DNA of 64,000 nt from an uncultured Flavobacteriales bacterium. GTDB taxonomy: Bacteria > Bacteroidota > Bacteroidia > UBA10329. The position numbers and the translations under genes were made by a program. Numbering within the stretch: position 1 is the stretch's first letter; the number at the start of each line of letters is the position of its first letter. The notes under the pieces were generated by a model. It worked only from the letters and a program-made list of their open reading frames with translations, was not told where the DNA came from and did no database searches. The stretch spans positions 4,334-68,333 of the forward strand of contig CALCGD010000268.1 in the NCBI GenBank assembly GCA_937900875.1, read 5' to 3'. Positions 41,856 through 61,283 of the stretch are shown here, piece after piece.

Positions 41856-42437
41856 ATGAGTTGTACCTACTTTCCATCGCAAATGATTACCCGAGAACAG
41901 GAACAAGAGCTAATAAGGAAGGCGCAAAAGGATATTAATGCCTTTGGCCCTCTCTATGATGCTCATTTCAGTACAGTTTTCGGATTCATTTTTAAGCGTG
42001 TTCGGAGTCAATCTTTAACAGGAGAGCTGACCTCGCTTGTGTTTGTAAAGGCCATGAATTCCATGTCTAAGTATGTGATTACTGGCGCCCCACTTTCGTC
42101 TTGGCTCATTCAAATCGCGCTAAATGAGGTGCGACAATATCATCGAAGAACTAAAAAGCAGACATCAGTGCCACTTAGCGAGGCTGATTTGGTTTCTGTG
42201 TTGAGTGAATTGGATGACAAACAAGAGAAAGAACGTAACATGGATGCGCTCATTGAGGCGCTTAATAAGCTAGACGATGAAGCATCCATCTACGTAGAAA
42301 TGCGTTTTTTTGAAGGAAGGTCCTTTAAAGAAATGGCAGAGATTTTGAACATATCTGCCGATAATGCCAAGGTGCGGACCTATCGCGCTTTGAACCGATT
42401 ACGAACAATAATGACCAACTTCGGCACAACAAAATGA
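41856..42437 (+). CDS. ECF-subfamily RNA polymerase sigma-70 factor
   Basis: Region 2 (FGFIFKRVRS...) and region 4 HTH (RSFKEMAEILNISADNAKVRTYRALNRLR). Confidence 0.85.
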   Translation: MSCTYFPSQMITREQEQELIRKAQKDINAFGPLYDAHFSTVFGFIFKRVRSQSLTGELTSLVFVKAMNSMSKYVITGAPLSSWLIQIALNEVRQYHRRTKKQTSVPLSEADLVSVLSELDDKQEKERNMDALIEALNKLDDEASIYVEMRFFEGRSFKEMAEILNISADNAKVRTYRALNRLRTIMTNFGTTK

Positions 42438-42658
42438 CGCGTTATCACGCAAATACCGAAACAGAAAAGAAGGGTTCTTTTAACGAAGTTCCGTCTCAAG
42501 ATGAGATGAACAAGTACAAGGACTTTGGCAAGCTGACGCATAATTACCAACGGATGACTAATCCGCTGTACAAACGCCCAATTTATAGATACAGAAAGGG
42601 GTTTCTGGTAATTCTACTTGTTTTGATAGTGCTTTGGCTTGTGCTAGAGTTCGGTTAG
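42434..42658 (+). CDS. Small membrane-anchored protein, candidate minimal anti-sigma factor
   Basis: 74 aa with a cytoplasmic N-terminus plus C-terminal TM (FLVILLVLIVLWLVLEF). It overlaps the sigma factor stop by 4 nt. Confidence 0.5.
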   Translation: MTRYHANTETEKKGSFNEVPSQDEMNKYKDFGKLTHNYQRMTNPLYKRPIYRYRKGFLVILLVLIVLWLVLEFG

Positions 42659-42791
42659 AAATTTTTTTCTGTTCCCTTTTTTAATTCCTGCATTCTATTG
42701 ATAGGACACTGAGAATTCCGGCCGGATATCAGTCCTGAAACACTACGCCAAATGGCGTGGCTAAGGATTGTATTAACCAAACTCTACTATC

Positions 42792-44405
42792 ATGGCTGGA
42801 CAGAAAGAATCTTCAAGACAAAAAATGATCGGGATGATGTATCTCGTTCTTACCGCGCTGCTTGCGCTCAACATTTCGAAAGATATTTTGGATGCATTTG
42901 TAATTGTAAACGAAAGCTTAGCGGCAAGCTCAGAAACTACTGCTAAAAAATTGGATGCTCTGTACTCCGATTTCGATTTGGCAAAGGCCGTTGACCCGAA
43001 AAAAGTCGACAACTATTGGGCACGATCTCGCGAAGCTAGAAGACGAGCTTCCGAACTCAACACGTTTATCGACAGTGTTAAAACCACACTCATATCAAAA
43101 ACAGAAAAAATAGACCGTTCCGTGGCCGATACACTTTCGATGGAGCTCATTGCAAAAAAGGACGATTACGATACGCCCACTAACCTTCTTATTGGCAGTA
43201 AAGAAGACGGATCGAGCGGCTTGGCTAGTAAACTCAAAAACAAAATAGTGGAGTATCAAGACGCAATGAGGGAGTTGTTAAATGAGCAAGACCAAACCTA
43301 TTTCAACGACCGAATTAATGTTGCAGATAGAAAACTAGTCGACAATACATCGACCTGGGAAACCAACAATTTTTACAACACACCATTGGTTGCGTCATTA
43401 GTGATACTCTCCAAGTTACAGATGGATGTGGCGGATGTTGAGTATGATGTGGTGAACAAACTTTACCGTTCGTTTAATCAGAAAGATTTCTTTTTTGACA
43501 CCATTGCCGCAACCGTCTTGCCTCAAAGTAATTACGTTTTGCTAGGGGAGGAATACTCTTCAGACATTATTGTAGCTGCTTATAGCACCACACGGTCACC
43601 AAAAATCAGAGTAGGAAAACTGAATAAAGAGGGTAACGAATTAACCTCGTTGGAAGACACAGTAGCTACCGAAAACGGAAAAGGCCTTTTCAGAAGACGC
43701 GCAACCGCTGAGGGAATTTTCAGCTATCAAGGAATGGTGGATTTGATAGATAGCGAAGGAGAAACTCAGAGCTACCCTTTTCAATCGGAATACATCGTTG
43801 CAAGACCATCACTGGTGGTTTCAGCGACTCAAATGAATGTGCTTTATAAGGGAATAGAAAACCCAGTTGCTATTTCTGTTCCAGGCGTACCGGCAGAAAA
43901 AATTAGGGCAACTATTACCGGGGGGAACACACTGAAAAAAGTAGGTTCTAATTCATACATGGTTCAAATGACACCAAGCTCTCCAAACCAAGTTTTTGTA
44001 AATGTTTCCGCTACAATGGCTGATGGATCAACCAGAGATATGGGTCGAATGGAGTTTCGAGCTAAGCGCTTACCAAAACCATTTTCTGCCATTAATGGGA
44101 AGGAAGGAGCAATCAGAATGTCGCCAAATGAAACCTGCGCTCAACTAGGGCTTTCTGCCAAATACGATTCAAACTTTGCCTTCAATCTATATTGCAACGT
44201 GACCAAATACCGTGTCTTGATAACTGACAACAAAGGTCAAATTGTATTGAATACTGGTTATGATGGCTCTCGCTTTGATGCAAGTTTGAAGAGCAAGCTG
44301 TGTGCGGTAAAGCCAGGTTACAGAATCACTTTCGAAAACATAAAAGCCGTTGGAAGCGATGAGGTGGAACATGAGTTGGCCCCAGTCATAATCATTGTAA
44401 AGTAG
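42792..44405 (+). CDS. gldM: GldM/PorM-family protein (T9SS / gliding motility), stand-alone copy
   Basis: N-terminus MAGQKESSRQKMIGMMYLVLTALLALNISKDILDAF matches the GldM N-terminal TM/signature; about 537 aa, typical of GldM. Confidence 0.8.
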   Translation: MAGQKESSRQKMIGMMYLVLTALLALNISKDILDAFVIVNESLAASSETTAKKLDALYSDFDLAKAVDPKKVDNYWARSREARRRASELNTFIDSVKTTLISKTEKIDRSVADTLSMELIAKKDDYDTPTNLLIGSKEDGSSGLASKLKNKIVEYQDAMRELLNEQDQTYFNDRINVADRKLVDNTSTWETNNFYNTPLVASLVILSKLQMDVADVEYDVVNKLYRSFNQKDFFFDTIAATVLPQSNYVLLGEEYSSDIIVAAYSTTRSPKIRVGKLNKEGNELTSLEDTVATENGKGLFRRRATAEGIFSYQGMVDLIDSEGETQSYPFQSEYIVARPSLVVSATQMNVLYKGIENPVAISVPGVPAEKIRATITGGNTLKKVGSNSYMVQMTPSSPNQVFVNVSATMADGSTRDMGRMEFRAKRLPKPFSAINGKEGAIRMSPNETCAQLGLSAKYDSNFAFNLYCNVTKYRVLITDNKGQIVLNTGYDGSRFDASLKSKLCAVKPGYRITFENIKAVGSDEVEHELAPVIIIVK

Positions 44406-44411
44406 GAAGCG

Positions 44412-45101
44412 ATGAGGCGATTGAAATTGATGGTAGGAAGTCTTCTACTTGCATTAATGATGGTTCAAACTGGGTGTTCTCAAAAGCCACCAGATTATAC
44501 TGAAGTAAAATCTCAAATAGCCGAAAGAAGGGTACAGCTTTGTGCAGCATACAGCAATGAAAAGTGTGACAAGGATTCTGTTGTGCGCTGTGCACAACAG
44601 TTCCTATTCACCACAATGACTGGACAAGTCTTTCCAAGCTGGTATGGGACTAAATGGGATTATAATGGCACGACCGAGGAACCAAGAAAAGGCCACATAG
44701 CCTGTGGGTATTTTGTCACCACCACGCTGCGCGATTTAGGGTTCAACATTCCTCGCGTGCGTTGGGCTCAACTTCCTTCAGAAACCATGATAAAAGAGAT
44801 GACCGAAAGCAGCCAAATAAAGCGGTATCGGTTTGCTGACATCAAACACATTGAAAGCGAAATCCGCACTTGGGGCGAAGGACTTTATGTGGTGGGAATG
44901 GATTCTCACACGGGATTCATTGTCAATATAAACGGCAAATGTCGCTTCGTTCATGCGGATTATTTCAATCCCTCGTTTGGGGTTATTTCGGAAGCTCTAA
45001 ACACGGACAATCCACTTAAGAGTTCGAAATACCGTGTCATTGGAAAGATTCTTACTGACGAAATGGTGCGTAAGTGGCTCGATAATCAGCGTTTTCCTTG
45101 A
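44412..45101 (+). CDS. Hypothetical lipoprotein
   Basis: Lipobox (MMVQTGC); 229 aa; 6 nt after gldM-like. Confidence 0.55.
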   Translation: MRRLKLMVGSLLLALMMVQTGCSQKPPDYTEVKSQIAERRVQLCAAYSNEKCDKDSVVRCAQQFLFTTMTGQVFPSWYGTKWDYNGTTEEPRKGHIACGYFVTTTLRDLGFNIPRVRWAQLPSETMIKEMTESSQIKRYRFADIKHIESEIRTWGEGLYVVGMDSHTGFIVNINGKCRFVHADYFNPSFGVISEALNTDNPLKSSKYRVIGKILTDEMVRKWLDNQRFP

Positions 45102-45144: not shown

Positions 45145-47265
45145 ATGCAAAATAAGATAGCTACGGAAGTTGGATGCAAGCCTAGTCAGGTTGCAAGCAC
45201 CTTGAGTTTATTAAACGGTGGTGCCACGGTTCCTTTTATATCGCGGTACCGTAAGGAAGCAACAGGTGGGTTGGATGAGGTTCAAATTGCTCGAATTAAA
45301 GAGTTAGCCGAACGTTATGCAGAATTGGAAAAGCGGAGGGAAACAATACTTGCCTCACTAAAAGAACAGGATGTACTCACGCAAGATTTAAAAACTAAGG
45401 TTGAGGGAGCTGCTACTATACAAGAGTTGGAAGACCTCTACCTGCCGTTTAGACCGAAACGCAAGACGCGAGCATCAATGGCGGTGGAGTTGGGATTGGA
45501 GCCCTTAGCCAAGATTCTGATGGCCCAGAATGAGCGTTTTCCACAACAAGCCGCTCAACGATTTGTGAAAGGAGATGTTGCTTCGGTTGGAGACGCACTC
45601 CAAGGCGCTAGGGACATTATTGCCGAATGGATGAACGAGAACGCGGCTTTGCGGGCGCGTTTACGCCAATTGTTTCTTCGCGAAGCAATGATAAGCTCCA
45701 AACTGGTGAAGGGTAAAGATGATTTAGGGGAGAAATTTCGAGACTATTTTAAGCATGAAGAACAACTTAAACGTATTCCCTCTCATCGTTTTTTAGCCAT
45801 AATGCGTGGCGAGAAAGAAGGGTTTTTAAGAGTCAACATATCTCCTAAGGAGGAAAGCGCATTGCAACTTCTAGAACGCTTTTTTGTCAAAGGTCAAACA
45901 GCCAGCTCTGATGAGGTGAAAACTGCAGCCAAAGACGCATATAAACGCCTTTTGCAACCCTCTTTAGAAACCGAAATGCGTAGTACGTTTAAGCAACAAT
46001 CGGATGAGCAAGCGATTAATGTTTTTGCCGAAAACCTTCGGCAGTTGCTCATGCTTCCACCGCTTGGCGAGAAGCGAGTGTTAGCACTCGACCCTGGTTT
46101 TAAATCGGGATGTAAAGTGGTGTGTTTAAGTGCACAAGGTGATTTGATGCATAACGAAAACATTTATCCACATCCACCTAGAAATGAGCGTTCTCAAGCA
46201 ATGAAAAAGCTTTCAACGCTAGTGGAACAGTACAAAATTGAAGCAATTGCCATCGGAAATGGAACGGCTAGCAGAGAAACGGAAGCGTTGGTGAAAGCCA
46301 TTCATTTTGACAGGAAAGTGCAGGTTTTTGTGGTAAGCGAGGCAGGAGCATCAGTCTACTCGGCAAGCAAAGTAGCAAGAGATGAATTCCCTCAATTTGA
46401 TGTAACCGTCCGCGGTTCTGTTAGTATCGGAAGAAGGCTGATTGACCCGCTTGCAGAGTTGGTGAAAATAGACCCTGCGGCAATTGGAGTTGGTCAGTAT
46501 CAACACGATGTGGATCAAAAGCAATTGCAAGCTTCGCTTAGCCGTGTTACAGAAAGTTGTGTGAATCAGGTTGGCGTAAATCTTAACACGGCTAGTAAGT
46601 TTCTGTTAAGCCACGTGTCCGGGTTGGGGCCACAATTGGCGGATAACATACTAGAGTTCAGGCTACAAAGCGGAACATTTTCATCGCGCGATGAATTAAA
46701 AAGTGTTCCACGATTGGGAGCAAAAGCGTTTGAGCAAGCCGCAGGGTTTCTTCGAATTCCGAATGCGAAAGACCCGTTAGATAACTCTGCGGTCCATCCA
46801 GAGCGCTACGGATTGGTAAAAAAAATGGCCAGGGACTTGAAAGTGACGGTGGCTGACTTGATTGGGAATGAAGCTTTAGTCAACTCAATTAACCTTCCAA
46901 ATTATGTGACTATTGAGGTTGGCTTACCAACGTTACAAGACATTAAAGACGAGTTACTAAAGCCCGGAAGAGACCCACGCAGAATTATTAAAGTTTTTGA
47001 ATTTGAAGCTGGAATAGCGAAAATCACTGACTTAATTCCAGGAATGGAGTTACCCGGTATCGTAACTAATATCACCGCTTTTGGGGCATTTGTAGATGTA
47101 GGTGTTAAGCAAGATGGCTTGGTGCATATTTCGCAATTGGCTGATAGATTCGTGAAAGACCCAACGGAAGTGGTGTCTGTTCATCAGCACGTGCGGGTAA
47201 AAGTGATGGAAGTTGATGCGGCTAGAAAGCGCATCGCTTTTAGCATGAAGGGGCTTAACGAATAA
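45145..47265 (+). CDS. tex: Transcription accessory protein Tex (S1 RNA-binding)
   Basis: N-terminal Tex HTH region (VPFISRYRKEATGGLDE), YqgF/HhH domains, C-terminal S1 domain. Confidence 0.92.
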   Translation: MQNKIATEVGCKPSQVASTLSLLNGGATVPFISRYRKEATGGLDEVQIARIKELAERYAELEKRRETILASLKEQDVLTQDLKTKVEGAATIQELEDLYLPFRPKRKTRASMAVELGLEPLAKILMAQNERFPQQAAQRFVKGDVASVGDALQGARDIIAEWMNENAALRARLRQLFLREAMISSKLVKGKDDLGEKFRDYFKHEEQLKRIPSHRFLAIMRGEKEGFLRVNISPKEESALQLLERFFVKGQTASSDEVKTAAKDAYKRLLQPSLETEMRSTFKQQSDEQAINVFAENLRQLLMLPPLGEKRVLALDPGFKSGCKVVCLSAQGDLMHNENIYPHPPRNERSQAMKKLSTLVEQYKIEAIAIGNGTASRETEALVKAIHFDRKVQVFVVSEAGASVYSASKVARDEFPQFDVTVRGSVSIGRRLIDPLAELVKIDPAAIGVGQYQHDVDQKQLQASLSRVTESCVNQVGVNLNTASKFLLSHVSGLGPQLADNILEFRLQSGTFSSRDELKSVPRLGAKAFEQAAGFLRIPNAKDPLDNSAVHPERYGLVKKMARDLKVTVADLIGNEALVNSINLPNYVTIEVGLPTLQDIKDELLKPGRDPRRIIKVFEFEAGIAKITDLIPGMELPGIVTNITAFGAFVDVGVKQDGLVHISQLADRFVKDPTEVVSVHQHVRVKVMEVDAARKRIAFSMKGLNE

Positions 47266-50200
47266 GCGCTACACGGCCCAGCTTTTTTAAGCCCCGGCCC
47301 CGATAATCTTCATACAAAATTTGGTAGGTGTAAATTCCCGTTTTTACCTCTTTACCTGTTTTTCTGTCTGTTCCGTTCCATCCAACGGTAATGTTGTTGG
47401 TATAAAAAAGCACTTTTCCCCAACGGTCGAAAACACGGAAATCTATGTTGTTAATGTCTTCTCCGTACGCATAGAAAACATCGTTAGCTCTATCCTGATT
47501 GGGTGAAAAAGCGCTCGGAACATAAAGCGTTGTGAAGGGCGCTATGTACACAGAATCTGAGTACGAATCTGGACAACCGAAGCTGTTAAAAGTGGTAAGC
47601 GTAATTACTTGATACCCTGTATCGCTAAAGAAGTAAGACGGGTTTTGCTCGTCAATGAGAGCTGACCCATCTCCATAATCCCAACTCCAAGAGATTGCAT
47701 TTTCACTTAAGTCTTCAAAATGAATGAGTGGCTCAAGAGCTGTTGTGTATGTAGGGTCTGCACTAAACAACGAGTTAGGCGTTGGGTTTACCGTAATGGT
47801 TCCGGAAGCATCATCGGTGCAATTTCCGAGGGTCGCCACCATGGTTACATCAAACGTTCCTTCAGACTGATACAAAACAGAAGGGATTGAATCTGTAGAC
47901 GTTTGCCCATCGCCAAAATTCCAGACGAAAGTGACTCCCGTAAGTGGAGTAGTTAGGTTTTCGAAGAGCAGTGTATCACCAATACAAACCGAATTTCCAG
48001 AAAATGCTGCTGATGGAACTGGCTCAACGTCAAGAGTGGTTTGGTCTGAGTTCAAGCAGCCAAAAGCGTCTGTACCAATTACGGTGTAAGCAGTTGTTGC
48101 AACAGGCGAGGCTGATGGGTTTCCGATTGCCGCATTGTTCAAACCAGTTGCTGGGTCCCAGACGTAAGTTGCTGCACCAGAGGCATTGAATCCAACACTT
48201 TCTCCAGCACAAATAGGACCGTAGTTACCGGCTAAAACTGTCGGTAGATCGTGCACAGTAGCTGTAATGGTTTCGGTGGTTGTGCAGTTAGCATTAGCCA
48301 CCGAATAAGAAAGGGAAAACACTCCAACGCCCGATGTAGCTGGCGAAAATATACCTGTCGGATTAGAGATTCCCGTGCCTGCCCAAGTCCCTCCCGCTGG
48401 TGTAAATCCTGCTAGCGTTTCGTCTGGACTATCAATACAAAGATTAATGTCTGAACCAGGATTAACCGTTGGAGATGTTATGATATTCGTAACAATTGCT
48501 GCACTTGCTAGGCTCGTACAACCATTGTCGGTGGCTTCTACAGTAATGCTGTTACCAGCAACCAATCCAGTTGTGGTCCATGTTTCGGAAGCAGAATTCT
48601 GTACGGAAGTAGCACCATCAAAGAACTCATAATTGTCAAATCCAGACGGGTTGGCCGTGAAGGTTATCGATTCTCCTTGGCAAATTTCATCATCAGGATC
48701 TGAACTGCTTATTGTAACGCTAGGGAAAGGACTAACCACCGTAGTTATAACGGCACTTGCCGCGCTAACACATCCTTCGGCACTGGTTCCAACTACTGTC
48801 ACCCCAGTTCCAGAAACGAGAGTATTGGTTTGATAAAAGTTTGATACGCCAGTTTGAACAGAGGCAAGAGCTTCGAAGAATTCATAATCTGCGAGTCCCA
48901 ATGGCAATGCAGTGAAAATGATATCATCCCCTTCGCAAATACTATCGTTTAAATCTGAGCTGACTAACGTGACTTGAGGAATTGGATTGACTTGCGTAAC
49001 AATTGCGGCACTTTCTGCACTTGGGCAGCCATTATCTGTTGCAATGACAGTGATGCTATTGTTAATTGGAATCGTTCCAAAAAGAATTTCGCTCACTCCG
49101 TTTTGAAGAGACGTACCGCCATTGAAAAACTCGTAATTACCGAGTCCTGCGGGTGATGCTGTAAACGTGATTGTTTCACCTTCGCAAATCTCATTGTCCA
49201 GGTCGTCTGAAGCCAGAGTAACGGTCGGAATTGGATTTACAGTAGGTACAATTGTATCGCTTGGATTCGCAAAACAGCTGCCTACAAATGCTTCTACGTA
49301 AATACTATCTCCTTGCTGAATAGAGGAACTAGTGTAGATGGCAAGCGGACCGTTTTGAACGGATACACCATCAATGAAAAACTCGTAATTGTCGTAAGTG
49401 GCGGGTGTTGCAGTAAACACAATAGGATCTCCTTCGCAAATTGCAGTAGAACTCGCGGTAAGTGTGACATCATAACTATTGAGCTGAACGATTACTTGGG
49501 TTGAGTCCGTAACTGGTCCACAGCATTCTGTTTGCACCGTAACCTTAATCCAATACGTTCCGGGGGTGGTGAAAAACACATCCGAAGTAGTGGTAAGCGC
49601 TGGTCCGGATTCGATGGCAGGATTAGCCGCTGGTCCAAAACTCCAATCGTATTGGGTGCCTGTTAAAGTTGTTGAGAATTGATTAGGGCATCCGACATCA
49701 ACCGTTCCATTTGCAGGAGTTATGGTGGGCAACGTAGGGCCATCGCTAAAAACTTCGATGAAGTCTGTAAATGCAGTTCCACTAAAAGTGATTGTTCTCC
49801 TTCCGTAGGTAGAATAGATAACCGCGAATGGACCACTGCCATTAGCTGTGGCGGGAGTAGCGCCTAATCCGAAATCCCAAGCACCACCACTAGGTGATGT
49901 GAAGGTGATATCTGCGTTAGTACAGCCATAATTATCTACCGAAATGATTGGTGGATTGCCAGGTACTCCTGCAGTTCCATTTGCGCTTATGGGCGTCCCT
50001 CCACCTTGCTCAGAAACGGCTACACTAGGCCCTGCAATTCCTGCTCCTCCAGCCCCGCCTGCACCTCCAGCTCCACCAGCACCTCCAGGTGCGCCATTAC
50101 TTGTACCACAACCAAAACCAGGACCACCAGCCCCTCCGGCCCCTCCAACACCACCTGCTCCGCCTGCCCCACCAGCGCCTCCTGTCCCACCGGGTCCAGG

Positions 50201-51343
50201 GTTTGCAAAGCAGTCAGTTATTGCACCCCCAACTCCATTATTCCAAAGAAAAACAGCAAAAGAACCACCACCACCTGTGCCACCAGTGCCACTGGTACTG
50301 CCACCACCTCCGGCACCACCACCACCACCGCTACCTCCGGTTTGGTCGTTTCCGCCTTGCTGTCGGCCGCCACCGCCACCGCCACCGCCACCACCGCAGC
50401 CATCGCCACCAGCAGTGCCGTTTCCACCAGGCCCGCCTAATGTGTAGTAGCCACCAGCAAAAGCGCCAGCGGTTCCGATTGAACCTGCGCTACCTGCCAA
50501 TCCGGTTGAACCAGGTTGTCCAGCAACAGGATTATTGCCCTCGCAATCGTTATTGTTACTGCTACCAAATAGTCCGCAACCACAATTAGCTCCCGATCCA
50601 CTGTTTCCACCTGCTCCTCCGCAACCTCCAGGTCCACTACCAGCTTGCCCACCTGCGGACGAACCGTTCCATCGAGCACTTATGCCGCCATTTCCTCCAT
50701 TGTTAACTCCAACACCACCTGCTCCACCAGGAGGAGGAGCGTTTTCATATCCCGCAGGAAGTCCAGGGCTACCTGGGCTGCCAGGCGTTCCTGGAATGCC
50801 AGGAGAGCCAGGTAAGCCAGTGCCGCCTGCGCCAGTAGTTATTTCGCAACGAACGATGTTGTAGTTGGAGCTTACAGCTAAATAAATTCCGTAAACCGAA
50901 ATACCAGCTGAACCAGCATCTGCCACATTAATGGTCAAATCCTGCAAGCGAAACCCGCTCGCGTTAAGCCCCGCAAATCCAACCAATGCATTGGCCGGTG
51001 GAGGTAACGCATTTGCATTGGTTCGGTTGATAATTGTGGGAGTTCCATTGCTCTTTACCCAAGTTACAGGGTCAAAACCACCCTCAATGGTAACATCGTT
51101 GGGAATAGATATGAATTCTGTTATTGTGTAGGAACCAGCTGCTAACCACAGAATATTATCAGTGGCATTTAGCATACTAATACCGGTTAATAAATTGGCC
51201 GGGTCCGTTCTAGTTCCACTTCCGGCTGGGGTAGCTGTGGAGGTCACATAAATTGGCCCACATGTAGTCTGAGCCTGCGCCTCTACATTTTGCAGAGCTG
51301 AGATAAACGCCACTATGAGAATAAATGTAAATGACCTAAGCAT
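47255..51343 (-). CDS. Giant secreted cell-surface protein/adhesin with T9SS type-B C-terminal domain
   Basis: Signal peptide; N-terminal beta-helix-like domain; about 265-aa collagen-like Gly-rich tract; four tandem 83-aa CEGD...YEFF repeats; PKD-like (FGDGQ, YGDGS) domains; C-terminal FSPNQDRANDVF...type-B CTD. Confidence 0.88.
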   Translation of the reverse strand: MLRSFTFILIVAFISALQNVEAQAQTTCGPIYVTSTATPAGSGTRTDPANLLTGISMLNATDNILWLAAGSYTITEFISIPNDVTIEGGFDPVTWVKSNGTPTIINRTNANALPPPANALVGFAGLNASGFRLQDLTINVADAGSAGISVYGIYLAVSSNYNIVRCEITTGAGGTGLPGSPGIPGTPGSPGSPGLPAGYENAPPPGGAGGVGVNNGGNGGISARWNGSSAGGQAGSGPGGCGGAGGNSGSGANCGCGLFGSSNNNDCEGNNPVAGQPGSTGLAGSAGSIGTAGAFAGGYYTLGGPGGNGTAGGDGCGGGGGGGGGGRQQGGNDQTGGSGGGGGAGGGGSTSGTGGTGGGGSFAVFLWNNGVGGAITDCFANPGPGGTGGAGGAGGAGGVGGAGGAGGPGFGCGTSNGAPGGAGGAGGAGGAGGAGIAGPSVAVSEQGGGTPISANGTAGVPGNPPIISVDNYGCTNADITFTSPSGGAWDFGLGATPATANGSGPFAVIYSTYGRRTITFSGTAFTDFIEVFSDGPTLPTITPANGTVDVGCPNQFSTTLTGTQYDWSFGPAANPAIESGPALTTTSDVFFTTPGTYWIKVTVQTECCGPVTDSTQVIVQLNSYDVTLTASSTAICEGDPIVFTATPATYDNYEFFIDGVSVQNGPLAIYTSSSIQQGDSIYVEAFVGSCFANPSDTIVPTVNPIPTVTLASDDLDNEICEGETITFTASPAGLGNYEFFNGGTSLQNGVSEILFGTIPINNSITVIATDNGCPSAESAAIVTQVNPIPQVTLVSSDLNDSICEGDDIIFTALPLGLADYEFFEALASVQTGVSNFYQTNTLVSGTGVTVVGTSAEGCVSAASAVITTVVSPFPSVTISSSDPDDEICQGESITFTANPSGFDNYEFFDGATSVQNSASETWTTTGLVAGNSITVEATDNGCTSLASAAIVTNIITSPTVNPGSDINLCIDSPDETLAGFTPAGGTWAGTGISNPTGIFSPATSGVGVFSLSYSVANANCTTTETITATVHDLPTVLAGNYGPICAGESVGFNASGAATYVWDPATGLNNAAIGNPSASPVATTAYTVIGTDAFGCLNSDQTTLDVEPVPSAAFSGNSVCIGDTLLFENLTTPLTGVTFVWNFGDGQTSTDSIPSVLYQSEGTFDVTMVATLGNCTDDASGTITVNPTPNSLFSADPTYTTALEPLIHFEDLSENAISWSWDYGDGSALIDEQNPSYFFSDTGYQVITLTTFNSFGCPDSYSDSVYIAPFTTLYVPSAFSPNQDRANDVFYAYGEDINNIDFRVFDRWGKVLFYTNNITVGWNGTDRKTGKEVKTGIYTYQILYEDYRGRGLKKLGRVALIR

Positions 51344-51543
51344 GGGGTGGTGGAGACAAAACGTGCTATTAAATTCGAGTTGCCTGATGCAAATTACAAA
51401 TTTGGTAGGTTGCTGGCGAAAAGTGATTCAAGGCATGAAGGTGATTGCGAAAGCTATGAAACACTCATAGTGAATAACATTCCAATTCTGATTAAAACTG
51501 GTCTGTTGTTAAGGATAGTTTTGAATGAGCAAAACTCGCTAAT

Positions 51544-52458
51544 ATGAAAACCCTAAATATTTCTAGAATCTTGTTGCTGGCAGCGGCTGCGGCATTCATT
51601 TCGTCTTGTGCATCGGTCAAACCATGCGGAGATGTTTACACTGAGCAGCAACAATTTTTTCAATCGAAAAAGTTTAAGGAGGCTGTTAACGAAAGAGACT
51701 CACTTTGTGTTCGAACGTCTGATTTGGAAGGCGTTTTGGCAGCAACGGAAAAAGATTTAGAGCAAACCAGTTCTGAATTAGCGGACATCTCGAAACAGTT
51801 AGACAATGCAAAGAAGGAATACGACCAGCTTAATCTGGCTTCGGGCGCAAAAGTGGCAGGATTAAGTAGCGATTTAGCGACTAAACAAGCAGAACTTGAT
51901 GCAAAGGAGGAATTATTGAAGAACAGAGAAGAACGATTAAAAATGCTTGAAGAGATTGTCCGAAAGCAAGATGAGCTTATGAATGCTCTTTCTGATCGAG
52001 TGAAGAAGGCATTGATGGGCTTTGATGCAGATGAGCTAAGCGTTGAAATGAGAGACGGAAAGGTTTACGTTTCGATGAGTGATAAACTGCTGTTTAAGTC
52101 TGGTAGCGATGCTGTGGAGCCAAAAGGAGTGGAAGCACTTCAAAAAATTGCTGAGGTGATGATTAAAAACACCGACATTAACATGGCTATTGAAGGTCAT
52201 ACCGATAGTATTCCAATTAAGACGAATAGGTTTAAAGACAACTGGGATTTGAGCGTTGCACGTTCGGTTTCTGTAGTGCGTTTGCTACAAGATAGCGGCC
52301 TAGACCCTCAGCGAGTTACAGCGGCCGGAAAAGGCGAGTATACACCGATTAGCGATAATAGCACGAAAGAAGGTAGAGCTAAAAACAGAAGAACTGAACT
52401 TGTACTTACTCCAAAACTGAATGAATTGATGCAGTTATTGGGTCAGTATGAGAGGTAA
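51544..52458 (+). CDS. OmpA-family lipoprotein with N-terminal coiled coil (MotB/Pal-like peptidoglycan-binding C-domain)
   Basis: Lipobox (FISSCAS); coiled coil; OmpA_C motifs (GHTDSIPI...NRRTELVL). Confidence 0.85.
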   Translation: MKTLNISRILLLAAAAAFISSCASVKPCGDVYTEQQQFFQSKKFKEAVNERDSLCVRTSDLEGVLAATEKDLEQTSSELADISKQLDNAKKEYDQLNLASGAKVAGLSSDLATKQAELDAKEELLKNREERLKMLEEIVRKQDELMNALSDRVKKALMGFDADELSVEMRDGKVYVSMSDKLLFKSGSDAVEPKGVEALQKIAEVMIKNTDINMAIEGHTDSIPIKTNRFKDNWDLSVARSVSVVRLLQDSGLDPQRVTAAGKGEYTPISDNSTKEGRAKNRRTELVLTPKLNELMQLLGQYER

Positions 52459-52843: not shown

Positions 52844-53643
52844 AATTGATAGCTAAGATACAAGCCACCACCGCCATTTAACCCATAAGGTGAAATGGTT
52901 AACACTTTTGTAATTGACTTTCTTCTATGCAACCACGGCACTAAATATCCAATTGCTCCTCCAACGAAATATCCAGCAATAAGGTCTGTAGGGAAATGCT
53001 GACCAGATTCAAAACGTAAGTAACCGACAACGATAGGAACTAAAGCAGCGCCAGTCCAAACAAGTGCCTCGTGTACGTGGTTTTCGGAATAATCTGAGAA
53101 GACTTTTGCGGTAGTAAAGCATAATGCTGCTGTAAGCGATGTATGACCAGAAAAGAACGAAAAGCGCGCGTCACGTTCGGTTTTATGATGCATGCTAACC
53201 GAAGGATTGTAGACAAATGGTCTAGGGCGCTTAACCCCCGCTTTGGCAAATTCGGTAATACCAAGGGTTATCATGGCAACCTCAGCATAAATAAAACCAA
53301 CAACTAGGTAATCCTTTCGTGCACGTTTGTTTATCATCATAAAAGCGGGAAGAGCAAAAGAGGCATAAAGGACTGCATCGCTGGCCGTTTTCACCTTCGG
53401 ATTCCAATTGTTTATAGCAAATCGATCAATGCCAGAAAGCGCGTAAGAATCTAACGAATTGACTTGGGCGGCAGTTAATGGCCTTGTCTGATAGTCGGCA
53501 AAAACGCCACCTGCTAAAATTAGACCCGCTCCTGACGAGTAGATAAGATCCTTTTTCCAGTTGAAGTTATAGGGACTTTCTTGCGATAGGGCTGAATTCG
53601 ATAAAATGGCGCACGAAAGAAGAACGAATAGGCCGAATTTCAT
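52840..53643 (-). CDS. PAP2-superfamily phosphatase, secreted
   Basis: KX6RP (KAGVKRPRP), SGH (FFSGHTS) and SRX5HX3D-like (ESGQHFPTD) motifs. Confidence 0.8.
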   Translation of the reverse strand: MKFGLFVLLSCAILSNSALSQESPYNFNWKKDLIYSSGAGLILAGGVFADYQTRPLTAAQVNSLDSYALSGIDRFAINNWNPKVKTASDAVLYASFALPAFMMINKRARKDYLVVGFIYAEVAMITLGITEFAKAGVKRPRPFVYNPSVSMHHKTERDARFSFFSGHTSLTAALCFTTAKVFSDYSENHVHEALVWTGAALVPIVVGYLRFESGQHFPTDLIAGYFVGGAIGYLVPWLHRRKSITKVLTISPYGLNGGGGLYLSYQL

Positions 53644-54932
53644 TTGGCTAAAATTAGTTGTTGCTTGTAAAGCTTTCCCTTTTCTATGAGCACCGCAAGA
53701 TAAAGTCCATTAGGCAACCAAGATAGGTTCATCGATTTGTCAGCAACGATATTTTCAGTCGCCACCAGCAGCCCTTGAGAATTAAAGAGCTGAATTGTTC
53801 CAGGTTTGAACGAACGTATAATACCATTCGATGGATTTGGGAACAGGTTTGCAGTTTCGTTTATGCTGTTTTCATGTGTCGAGAGGGTTCCTTGGTAGTT
53901 GAGTTCTAAAACGGATGAAAGCACCGTTCCGTTTGGTCCTATACCGCCTATCAGATACTTTTTGGTAGTGCTAGTGTTTGCCATACCCCTTAAGTCCATT
54001 GGCAGTGGCAAATCGGTTTCGTTACCCCAATCTCCAGAAGTAGGGTGGTAAAACACGGTTCTGTTTATGGGCGGTACTTGTCCAGAACCATTATAAGCCA
54101 CAGCATTGAAATTGTACGTAACGGTTGAGCCACCCAACCAATGCACGGCTTCTGAAGTGGTACAGGCAGCAGCCCTATACCCGCTTATTATGGGTTCGGG
54201 TTCAGCCTCAGACCATGTAATATCGGCTGGATTTAATGGATTGATAAACCCCTTTCTCAGTTCGGTTTGAGCCACAAAATTGAATCCAGCAGCCCCTCCG
54301 AAATAGTACAGCGTATCCCCCAAAATTTCTCCCGAAGCCCCAAAGCACTTATAGTTATTGTTGTTGGGAACGGGCTCTCCAACCGACCAAGAATCTAAAT
54401 AAGTATTGTAAACCTGCACGTTTGGCACGTTAGCATTGTTGCTCCACCCAGTAACTACGAAGATTAAACTGTCTTGGTAAACGGCCTGTACATGGTCATC
54501 AATCGGCACGGGAATTTCAGTACCATCCGTAATAAACTGATTCTGAGTAATGTCAAATCGATGTACCCGATGAGATGATATTTCATTTCCGTTTGGAAGT
54601 ACATGGTAGCCACCAATAATGTAGATGATGTTTCCTACTCGACTGGCAGCAGCGGCAATTTTGCCAAGGGTATCAGGCAGATTATCCAGCTCCACTACTT
54701 GTAAAGTTGAAGTATTTACTCTCCAAGATTTTAGGTGAATCCCACTTGATAAAAGCGTAGAATCAATACCTGAAAACGAATAAATAAACGAGCCCTCGGA
54801 AGAAAACCCCTCACAAACAGCATTGTTGGATACTGGTTCGGGTAAACTAGCCACCTCGGCAACAGTCCAGTTTTGCCCTACGGATAGAAATGGAATTAGA
54901 AGCACAATAAACAGGGAGAGGATCTTCATCAT
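53640..54932 (-). CDS. Secreted beta-propeller (Kelch-like) protein with T9SS type-A C-terminal sorting domain
   Basis: Signal peptide; repeated propeller blades; C-terminus LFPNPSNGIIRSF...GLYLAVLIEKGKLYKQQLILAK. Confidence 0.75.
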   Translation of the reverse strand: MMKILSLFIVLLIPFLSVGQNWTVAEVASLPEPVSNNAVCEGFSSEGSFIYSFSGIDSTLLSSGIHLKSWRVNTSTLQVVELDNLPDTLGKIAAAASRVGNIIYIIGGYHVLPNGNEISSHRVHRFDITQNQFITDGTEIPVPIDDHVQAVYQDSLIFVVTGWSNNANVPNVQVYNTYLDSWSVGEPVPNNNNYKCFGASGEILGDTLYYFGGAAGFNFVAQTELRKGFINPLNPADITWSEAEPEPIISGYRAAACTTSEAVHWLGGSTVTYNFNAVAYNGSGQVPPINRTVFYHPTSGDWGNETDLPLPMDLRGMANTSTTKKYLIGGIGPNGTVLSSVLELNYQGTLSTHENSINETANLFPNPSNGIIRSFKPGTIQLFNSQGLLVATENIVADKSMNLSWLPNGLYLAVLIEKGKLYKQQLILAK

Positions 54933-59792: not shown

Positions 59793-61283
59793 TTGGACTA
59801 TACTTCAAAACTCATGATGAAAATATTTACGATTTCAACAATTCTTTCTTGTCTAATCTCTCTGGTTGCACTTGCACAACCAAGCACTCTTACCGTTGGC
59901 AACACTACACTAGACGTTAGAGTTGTTATTCAGGGGTCAAACTCATCTAATGGAATAGATATTCCTTGGGAGATTCAATGGGGTCCGGATAACTTTATTT
60001 GGATGACTGAAAGATCAGGAAGAGTAAGCAGATTAAACCCAGAAACGGGAGCGAGAACTACCATTTTGGATTTGAGCAATGCCGTTTACGATCAATCAGA
60101 GGCAGGGTTGTTAGGCCTTCAACTTCATCCAGATTTTGAGAATAATCCGTATGTTTTTCTTGCATACACATATTCAAGTGGAGGCGTGAAAGAGCGAATT
60201 GTGAGATACACCTACAATAGCACAAGCAACACGCTAGGGTCTCCAATGATTTTGTTAGATAACATCAACGGAAACAGCACGCACATTGGCTGCCGATTAT
60301 TGATTCTTCCGGATAATACCATGTTAGCTACAACAGGAGACTACCAAAACCAGTCTTCTCCTCAAGATGATAACGCGCTGAATGGAAAGATTTTGAGAAT
60401 GAATCTAGATGGCACAATCCCATCTGACAACCCATTTGGGCCTACGAGCTACGTTTATAGCAAAGGGCACAGAAATGCTCAAGGTCTTTTGATTGCGCCA
60501 AATGGTACCATTTACAGCTCGGAGCACGGACCAACGACCGATGATGAGTTCAATATTATTGTTCCTGGTGGCAATTATGGCTGGCCTGATGTTGCTGGAT
60601 TTTGTAACTCCACAAGCGAAATGGCAGCTTGTAATACAATGACTGATTATCAGGACCCTTTAGCAATTTGGTATTCTGGCTCAACAATAGCACCATCCGA
60701 TATCGTTTATTACAATCATCCAGCAATTCCAGAATGGCAAGGGAAAATTTTGATGGCTGTTCTTAAGGCGGAACACATCAAGGTTATTGAGTTAGACAAC
60801 GTGGACGGAACCACTGTTGTGGACCAAGAGATAATGTTCAATACTGCACATGCAAACAATCCAACATCAAGTTTCAATCAGGGTCTTTTAAATAGGCTAA
60901 GAGACCTTTGTGTTGCCCCTGACGGCCGAGTGTTTGTTGCTACCAGTGGCTCATCATGGTCAAACACATCTCCTTTTACTCATTCAATCCTTGAGTTAGA
61001 AAACTCCAGCTATTCCCCTACGTCTATCGAAAACGAGCAACTTGCCGTCAGGACTCGGGTATATCCAAACCCAACTTCTGGATTAACGAAAATTTCTTTT
61101 GCTTCAGAATTAGTCGGTGCGGACTACGTAATCACAGATTTTACAGGACGAATTATTGCAACAGAGCAAATTACTGCGGCCAATGTGACTGCTGATTTTT
61201 CCGCTTTGGCATCGGGTTTGTATATTATCCAATCAACAAATGGAAATTATACAACCAGCGAGAGACTCGTGATTAGTAAATGA
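59793..61283 (+). CDS. PQQ-dependent sugar (glucose/sorbosone) dehydrogenase beta-propeller with T9SS type-A C-terminal sorting domain
   Basis: Signal peptide; soluble-GDH motifs (PDNTMLATTGD, HGPTTDDEFNII, GGNYGWP); C-terminus VYPNPTSGLTKISF...LYIIQSTNG...RLVISK. Confidence 0.8.
   Translation: MDYTSKLMMKIFTISTILSCLISLVALAQPSTLTVGNTTLDVRVVIQGSNSSNGIDIPWEIQWGPDNFIWMTERSGRVSRLNPETGARTTILDLSNAVYDQSEAGLLGLQLHPDFENNPYVFLAYTYSSGGVKERIVRYTYNSTSNTLGSPMILLDNINGNSTHIGCRLLILPDNTMLATTGDYQNQSSPQDDNALNGKILRMNLDGTIPSDNPFGPTSYVYSKGHRNAQGLLIAPNGTIYSSEHGPTTDDEFNIIVPGGNYGWPDVAGFCNSTSEMAACNTMTDYQDPLAIWYSGSTIAPSDIVYYNHPAIPEWQGKILMAVLKAEHIKVIELDNVDGTTVVDQEIMFNTAHANNPTSSFNQGLLNRLRDLCVAPDGRVFVATSGSSWSNTSPFTHSILELENSSYSPTSIENEQLAVRTRVYPNPTSGLTKISFASELVGADYVITDFTGRIIATEQITAANVTADFSALASGLYIIQSTNGNYTTSERLVISK

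Follow-up and report, generated by a model that had tools for sequence, protein, structure and literature searches.

The subject of this study is a gene at positions 47255..51343 (minus strand, ATG start) of a 64,000-nucleotide stretch of DNA (hereafter the window) from a freshwater, uncultured Flavobacteriales bacterium, which encodes a protein of 1362 amino acids (aa). Our analysis suggests, at a probability of roughly 60%, that this protein is an adhesin anchored at the surface (possibly an enzyme active on glycans) carrying a type B C-terminal sorting domain (CTD) of a type IX secretion system (T9SS), with a head that would combine a beta-helix with packed helices of the polyglycine-II type. 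Adhesin-like T9SS cargo is a known kind of protein, and its head is a new, unannotated variant of it: a beta-helix with terminal rungs interleaved by conserved period-3 Gly runs and followed by two PKD-like domains. From the N- to the C-terminus the protein is divided as follows.

51275..51343, minus strand: Sec signal peptide, aa 1-23 (MLRSFTFILIVAFISALQNVEA, then cleavage before QA), assigned by inspection from a hydrophobic core followed by V-E-A
50834..51274, minus strand: N-domain, a short right-handed parallel beta-helix, aa 24-170, with invariant C28, P48, G70, Y72, G88, W95, K97, D135, Y151 and R165
50018..50833, minus strand: Gly-rich region, aa 171-442, with seven fixed-length period-3 Gly runs, loops and beta elements
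49478..50017, minus strand: linker and two beta-sandwich domains, aa 443-622, all-beta in the AlphaFold2 model (pLDDT, the predicted local distance difference test, 91-97)
48473..49477, minus strand: four tandem Ig_7 (CHU_C-associated Ig-like) domains, aa 623-957 (PF19081, E 1.5e-19, 4 stretches)
48251..48472, minus strand: spacer, probably Ig-like, aa 958-1031, conserved in orthologues and matching no Pfam family at E<0.04
48026..48250, minus strand: fifth, diverged Ig_7-like domain, aa 1032-1106 (PF19081, E 4.6e-4, 20.9 bits, below the 27.3 cut-off)
47534..48025, minus strand: two PKD domains, aa 1107-1187 and 1188-1270 (PKD_4, PF18911, E 3.9e-20; second copy E 1.5e-8)
47255..47533, minus strand: T9SS type B CTD, aa 1271-1362 and the stop codon (PF13585, TIGR04131)

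Within the protein family, conservation is highest over aa 1-620, a part that matches no Pfam or NCBIfam family (a sub-threshold PKD signal at 543-605 excepted) and no PDB entry; the names given to homologues at NCBI are only "PKD domain-containing" or [quoted passage not shown]. Residues 28-640 are common to all 120 best homologues at 36-77% identity, and the C-terminal parts of these proteins vary (Ig_7, PKD, SprB repeats, type A or type B CTD). Run exhaustively against 1.84 billion cluster representatives (clusters at 50% identity), phmmer returned 177 clusters at E<=1e-30, a number that rises to 539 at E<=1e-10. Usually one stretch (query residues 4-616) is matched; it follows the signal peptide immediately or, in proteins of up to 4813 aa, lies at about residues 470-1200. 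Because the match comes in one stretch, in varying positions and with varying C-termini behind it, the head (aa 24-622) is a single conserved and portable module. The conserved motifs VPGNPP, GCTN and CCG mark its last part (aa 443-622), a region kept in all module-bearing homologues; the second of the two beta-sandwiches is weakly PKD-like (Pfam PKD, E 1.9e-4, sub-threshold, aa 543-605).

The closest genomes are uncultured Flavobacteriales metagenome-assembled genomes (MAGs), with 65-72% identity; other homologues are labelled Bacteroidia, Chitinophagales or Bacteroidota, and the module occurs in abundant freshwater and marine Flavobacteriales. A contig scan with the single protein recovered only close relatives, all of them MAGs, except for a marginal 89-residue match in Aequorivita vitellina (L017, E 8e-5). 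Several homologues (P0081, P0087, P0090, P0095-P0098 and others) carry the head with a type A CTD (PF18962) in place of the type B, and in P0085, P0086, P0088, P0089, P0092, P0110, P0115, P0118 and P0119 the head is internal, after an N-terminal extension of 470-560 aa. The literature searched contained no paper combining T9SS, a glycine-rich region and a beta-helix.

The odd stretch of the head is the Gly-rich region. Gly makes up 44% of aa 171-442 (120/272), and the period-3 power of its distribution lies 8.6 standard deviations above 2000 shuffles of the same residues, so the Gly-rich tract described in the original prediction, an earlier reading of this DNA, is indeed present (the string quoted there, PGSPGIPGTPGSPGSPGLP, is at aa 177-195). 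In an alignment of 47 sequences with 37-79% identity (alignment A1), Gly is >90% conserved at strict period 3 within seven runs, which alternate with loops and beta elements.

aa 171-197, 206-220, 274-293, 303-326, 336-360, 383-407 and 417-437: Gly runs, as delimited in alignment A1
aa 198-205, 221-273, 327-335 and 408-416: variable, Cys-containing loops between Gly runs
aa 294-302: short beta element between Gly runs
aa 361-382: beta-helix-like rung between Gly runs

The cysteines of the loops are conserved. Over the 47 sequences the runs contain 0-2 inserted columns (9 in the run 206-220) versus 7-64 in the loops; in other words, the Gly runs are fixed-length structural elements, and insertions and deletions are confined almost entirely to the four loops. 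By this near-constancy the tract is not a length-polymorphic repeat, and the original suggestion that it is unusual even among such proteins is not supported, the tract being carried by all 120 best homologues and by the 177 clusters at the stricter threshold. Among five orthologues, 45% of the Gly-region columns are invariant and 97% of those contain synonymous codon changes. As the codons differ in nearly all of the invariant columns, the conservation reflects purifying selection at the protein level and not homogenisation of DNA repeats. The rung at aa 361-382 (SFAVFLWNNGVGGAITDCFANPG) matches the last rung of the N-domain (SVYGIYLAVSSNYNIVRCEITTG) in length and anchor residues, and a Gly run some 25 residues long comes after each of them. 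From this likeness in sequence and in alignment lengths we infer that the beta-helix rungs are separated by excursions made of Gly runs.

The head was modelled confidently by AlphaFold2 with alignment A1 (mean pLDDT 89.5, predicted template modelling score (pTM) 0.77). In this model aa 24-170 are beta strands (pLDDT 91-98), aa 294-302 and 361-382 are beta and aa 443-622 form two beta-sandwiches; the Gly runs reach a pLDDT of about 88-98 essentially without helix or strand assigned by DSSP, and the loops 47-79. Modelled alone, the Gly region still gave a pLDDT of 83 and a pTM of 0.76. By these models the region is apparently folded, being neither collagen-like nor a loose spacer. The N-domain has the fold of a right-handed parallel beta-helix, in agreement with the beta-helix-like N-domain proposed originally: weak matches to PF12708 were found in 18 of the 29 homologous N-domains (best E 7.8e-5), and the profile search with the N-domain of the target itself gave no match (e.g. 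to PF12708 or PF13229) at E<=10. Identity of this domain to solved pectate-lyase-like proteins, such as Pel9A (1ru4), the adhesin PfbA (4mr0), alginate lyases and phage tailspike depolymerases, is only 8-17%. Compared with solved helices of the pectate-lyase-like kind the target helix is much shorter, and the splitting of its last rungs by long Gly-run excursions has no counterpart in the solved beta-helices among the matches.

The confident monomeric model also bears on the proposal that the tract is collagen-like. Taken in full, that explanation would make it either a triple helix like that of collagen or a spacer that is elastic and disordered, and the tract might then drive trimerisation. 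It draws on the presence of Pro-rich Gly-X-X triplets (GLPGSPGIPGTPGSPGSPGLP) and on profile searches of the PDB, which return only collagens (with weak E values of 0.01-10). However, the uninterrupted Gly-X-X runs do not exceed 8-9 triplets and are broken by the conserved Cys loops and the beta rungs, their length is constant throughout A1, most of them are GGX rather than GXY, the pLDDT of the monomer model is about 90 or above over the runs, and no match to Pfam Collagen (PF01391) was seen at E<=1. The PDB sequence searches as a whole (with the head, with the Gly-region profile and with a 138-aa Gly fragment) gave only collagen or low-complexity noise, or nothing. The Scl-type bacterial collagen-like proteins resemble the target in their short Pro-rich Gly-X-Y stretches, but the target has no long uninterrupted GXY array, is mostly GGX and keeps the region within a predicted monomeric fold. 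Overall, the reading of the tract as collagen or disordered spacer is largely refuted and, in our judgement, very improbable.

Most probably, the seven Gly runs are packed together as an array of polyglycine-II/polyproline-II (PPII) helices, a geometry suggested by the model together with the sequence pattern. Runs of GGX or GXX with conserved Gly are packed as PPII bundles in the snow-flea and springtail antifreeze proteins, in ALK and in gp38 of phage S16, and in the PE_PGRS proteins the Gly runs of the PGRS domain are confidently modelled by AlphaFold as bundles (PMC11364801, PMC13243192, PMC9436101). PPII bundles have also been reported in the tail tip of mycobacteriophage Bxb1 (PMC13243192). 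In solved bundles a PPII helix has 4-11 residues (PMC13243192, Table 1); with about 160 residues in runs, the target would therefore accommodate something like 14-16 helices. The fixed length of the runs, the variable loops, the high pLDDT and the lack of helix or strand fit (albeit do not prove) a PPII fold.

Compared with the snow-flea and springtail antifreeze proteins (3BOG, 7JJV), S16 gp38 (6F45), ALK/LTK (7LS0), Bxb1 gp33/gp29 (9D93) and the predicted PGRS domains, the target shares the period-3 GGX/GXX runs, the conserved Gly, the loops with variable or bulky residues, the AlphaFold confidence without assigned helix or strand and a presumed extracellular binding context. Unlike in these bundles, its runs are interleaved with beta-helix rungs and occur in a T9SS cargo of Bacteroidota. 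Sequence, profile and Foldseek searches detected no sequence or structural match of the target to known PPII bundle domains; the single Foldseek match was non-significant (E 0.42, to a Bxb1 tail tip entry) and was given no weight. The contig scan with alignment A1, in which the search used a poly-Gly pattern only, confirmed nothing.

A more specific version of the PPII reading, which we hold tentatively and at somewhat less than even odds, is that aa 171-442 are a polyglycine-II array (of perhaps 14-16 helices) between beta-helix rungs, serving as a rigid platform that would display disulfide-locked receptor-recognition loops in the manner of phage gp38 and the ALK glycine-rich domain. It is less likely that a flat Gly/Ala face of the array binds ice or another ordered surface.

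Outside the head, the assignment of the protein as a T9SS type B substrate of adhesin-like architecture (a beta-helix head on an Ig/PKD stalk) is supported by matches to curated families. CHU_C (PF13585) scored 50.1 bits at about aa 1275-1347 against a Pfam cut-off of 27, and TIGR04131 scored 42.5 bits against an NCBIfam cut-off of 35, in full agreement with the type B CTD originally recognised from the string FSPNQDRANDVF (found at aa 1279-1290). The putative Sec signal peptide is visible at the N-terminus, in a region that is poorly conserved among orthologues (7% invariant). The PKD modules of the original prediction were likewise recovered as two domains at the E values listed above, the PKD_4 match covering aa 1107-1185 with 72.1 bits (cut-off 27).

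Ig_7 (PF19081) matched in 5 stretches (E 3.8e-19, 69.2 bits versus a cut-off of 27.3). The four clear copies are anchored by IC(E/Q)G(D/E) at aa 635, 719, 802 and 887 and each contains (N/D)YEFF; the fifth is 19-31% identical to the other four. The four tandem repeats described earlier are thus real and correspond to these copies, but their spacing (84, 83 and 85 aa, or 249-255 nt) is slightly longer than the period of about 245 nt originally given. With pairwise identity of 31-59% in protein and 40-48% in DNA, and with close homologues all 1346-1384 aa long, the copies do not bear out the length polymorphism expected from tandem repeats. Tandem Repeats Finder detected no repeat of about 250 nt, reporting only 3-27-nt Gly-codon repeats at 50040-50410. 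As no such period is seen, the "83-aa repeats" are diverged protein domains rather than DNA repeats.

Combining these elements, the following course of events may be proposed. The protein would be exported by Sec, moved over the outer membrane by T9SS via its type B CTD and captured by a distantly encoded shuttle/anchor of the PorP/SprF type, which may retain it at the cell surface. Four to five Ig_7 and two PKD domains would form the stalk, with the head outermost. The head would comprise the short, pectate-lyase-like right-handed beta-helix, the Gly-rich region of 270 residues, with another two beta elements predicted to stack on the beta-helix, and the two PKD-like beta-sandwiches. The rigid Gly scaffold would present the variable, disulfide-containing loops, and a ligand could be bound by the face of the beta-helix (invariant Y72, W95, K97, D135, Y151 and R165) together with the Cys loops. 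Such a ligand would most likely be a polysaccharide or the surface of another cell, and the head might also cleave it.

Two points weigh against this picture. The invariant K/D/R/Y/W residues of the beta-helix fit an enzyme equally well as a binding site, and, since the close homologues are without exception from MAGs, there is no known cultured strain for checking expression. The first point opens the main alternative for the head, namely that it is an enzyme acting on polysaccharides (a lyase, hydrolase or epimerase), either secreted or bound to the surface, in which the beta-helix would be catalytic, the Gly array and the PKD-like domains accessory and the stalk a spacer. The same invariant residues are compatible with this role, which we consider rather unlikely as compared with the adhesin.

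The main alternative concerning location is a mobile gliding adhesin, working like SprB, that would be loaded on the gliding track with the head gripping the substratum. The question is linked to the genomic context. The window encodes an equivalog of PorM/GldM at 42792-44405 (plus strand; TIGR03517, 309.5 bits versus a cut-off of 180), about 3 kb from the target, as well as two further T9SS cargo genes.

53640-54932, minus strand: Kelch beta-propeller with a type A CTD (PF18962)
59793-61283, plus strand: glucose/sorbosone dehydrogenase with a type A CTD (PF18962)

The GldM equivalog and these two genes establish that the host organism has a T9SS. [quoted passage not shown] No sprF-like gene lies immediately downstream of the target and no member of the PorP/SprF family was found among the open reading frames (ORFs) within about 10 kb of it; since no such gene is adjacent or nearby, the target is an "orphan" type B substrate in the sense of that study. 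It shares with the F. johnsoniae orphans the Sec signal peptide, the TIGR04131/PF13585 C-terminus, the large multi-domain, putatively adhesive architecture and the absence of a porP/sprF-like gene immediately downstream, a likeness that covers sorting features and context.

The type B CTD, the orphan status (all three F. johnsoniae orphans, like SprB, go to the gliding machinery; PMC12618676), the SprB repeats (PF13573) of some family members and the nearby gldM with its conserved synteny would all suit a gliding adhesin. The target itself resembles SprB as a repetitive, beta-rich extracellular protein with a type B CTD, predicted to reside on the surface of a Bacteroidota cell. SprB is a protein of about 6500 aa. 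The target, at 1362 aa, has about one fifth of that length, a different head and no adjacent sprF, and a Pfam search at E<=1 found no SprB repeat in it; moreover, other family members (e.g. P0081, P0087, P0090) use a type A CTD, which argues against a firm tie between head and gliding track. Of the "SprB-like motility adhesin" suggested originally, the type B T9SS sorting and the adhesin-like architecture therefore hold, and the likeness to SprB is not supported; a mobile SprB-like role appears quite unlikely, and a surface-anchored adhesin remains the preferred reading.

The single 4.1-kb ORF of 1362 aa was recovered in the ORF list of the window exactly as originally delimited. A concern raised together with it was that the GC-rich tract might be a mis-assembled low-complexity region and the long ORF an artefact, as the 9-27-nt tandem repeats and the high GC at 50040-50410 could suggest. 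The identical 1362-aa protein occurs on 9 contigs, however, the four loci displayed (L001-L004) belonging to four different ENA samples, and orthologues at 54-74% identity share both the length and the layout of the Gly runs. With the same protein on nine contigs and its length kept in orthologues, mis-assembly is excluded for practical purposes and the ORF is unbroken; we assign this explanation a negligible probability. The GC content of 0.56-0.62 and the strongly negative GC skew at 49850-50750 are due to the GGN glycine codons. Horizontal transfer was rejected as the cause of this anomaly, which coincides exactly with the Gly codons in loci that keep their gene order among orthologues. Antisense to the Gly tract, at 49944-50864 (plus strand), are four Pro/Thr/His-rich ORFs of 109-167 aa, which were rejected as genes, being mirror images of the GGN codons. 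No paralogue of the target gene was found within the window.

On its 3' side the target gene converges with tex (45145-47265, plus strand), the two overlapping by 11 nt at 47255-47265, which leaves no room for an intergenic terminator. Upstream is a divergent gene for an OmpA-family lipoprotein (51544-52458, plus strand), with a coiled-coil region and an OmpA/MotB-like peptidoglycan-binding domain; it is the conserved divergent neighbour in every orthologous locus (L005-L011), at 70-80% identity. In the public annotation of the identical contigs, the divergent intergenic region is filled by a 66-aa, GTG-start ORF without a family (51347-51547, plus strand; 2797-2997 in L001), on the opposite strand and 3 nt from the target start; this call is probably spurious. 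Orthologous MAG loci keep the gene order PAP2 - OmpA - target - tex (- 229-aa ORF - gldM). In one of them (L009, JACJZQ010000001.1, 9327-11643) tex was undetected by tblastn and the target is directly convergent to the 229-aa ORF and gldM, so the linkage between the target and gldM holds without tex. Within 41856-45101 (plus strand) of the window, the first gene encodes an extracytoplasmic function (ECF) sigma factor (41856-42437); after it come a 74-aa ORF (42434-42658), which carries a membrane helix at its C-terminus and may be an anti-sigma factor, then gldM and the 229-aa ORF, which has no family. Unlike in the usual gldKLMN operon, gldK and gldL were not seen immediately upstream of gldM.

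If the proposed structure of the Gly region is correct, the head would represent a hybrid architecture for which no precedent has been solved or described, and Bacteroidota would have their first family of PPII-bundle domains. Solved folds built as bundles of PPII helices are few (the springtail antifreeze proteins, ALK/LTK, phage gp38 and the Bxb1 tail proteins), and the predicted mycobacterial PGRS domains are still disputed. A family of at least 177 sequence clusters, with its Gly runs set within a confidently predicted beta-helix scaffold and secreted via a known pathway, would offer a tractable system for studying how PPII folds are stabilised and what they bind. Without a PPII array in the Gly region, what remains would be an ordinary T9SS adhesin of several domains, one of them uncharacterised. 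For the biology of T9SS, the analysis defines an unannotated, portable head module that is combined with sorting signals of either type, A or B.

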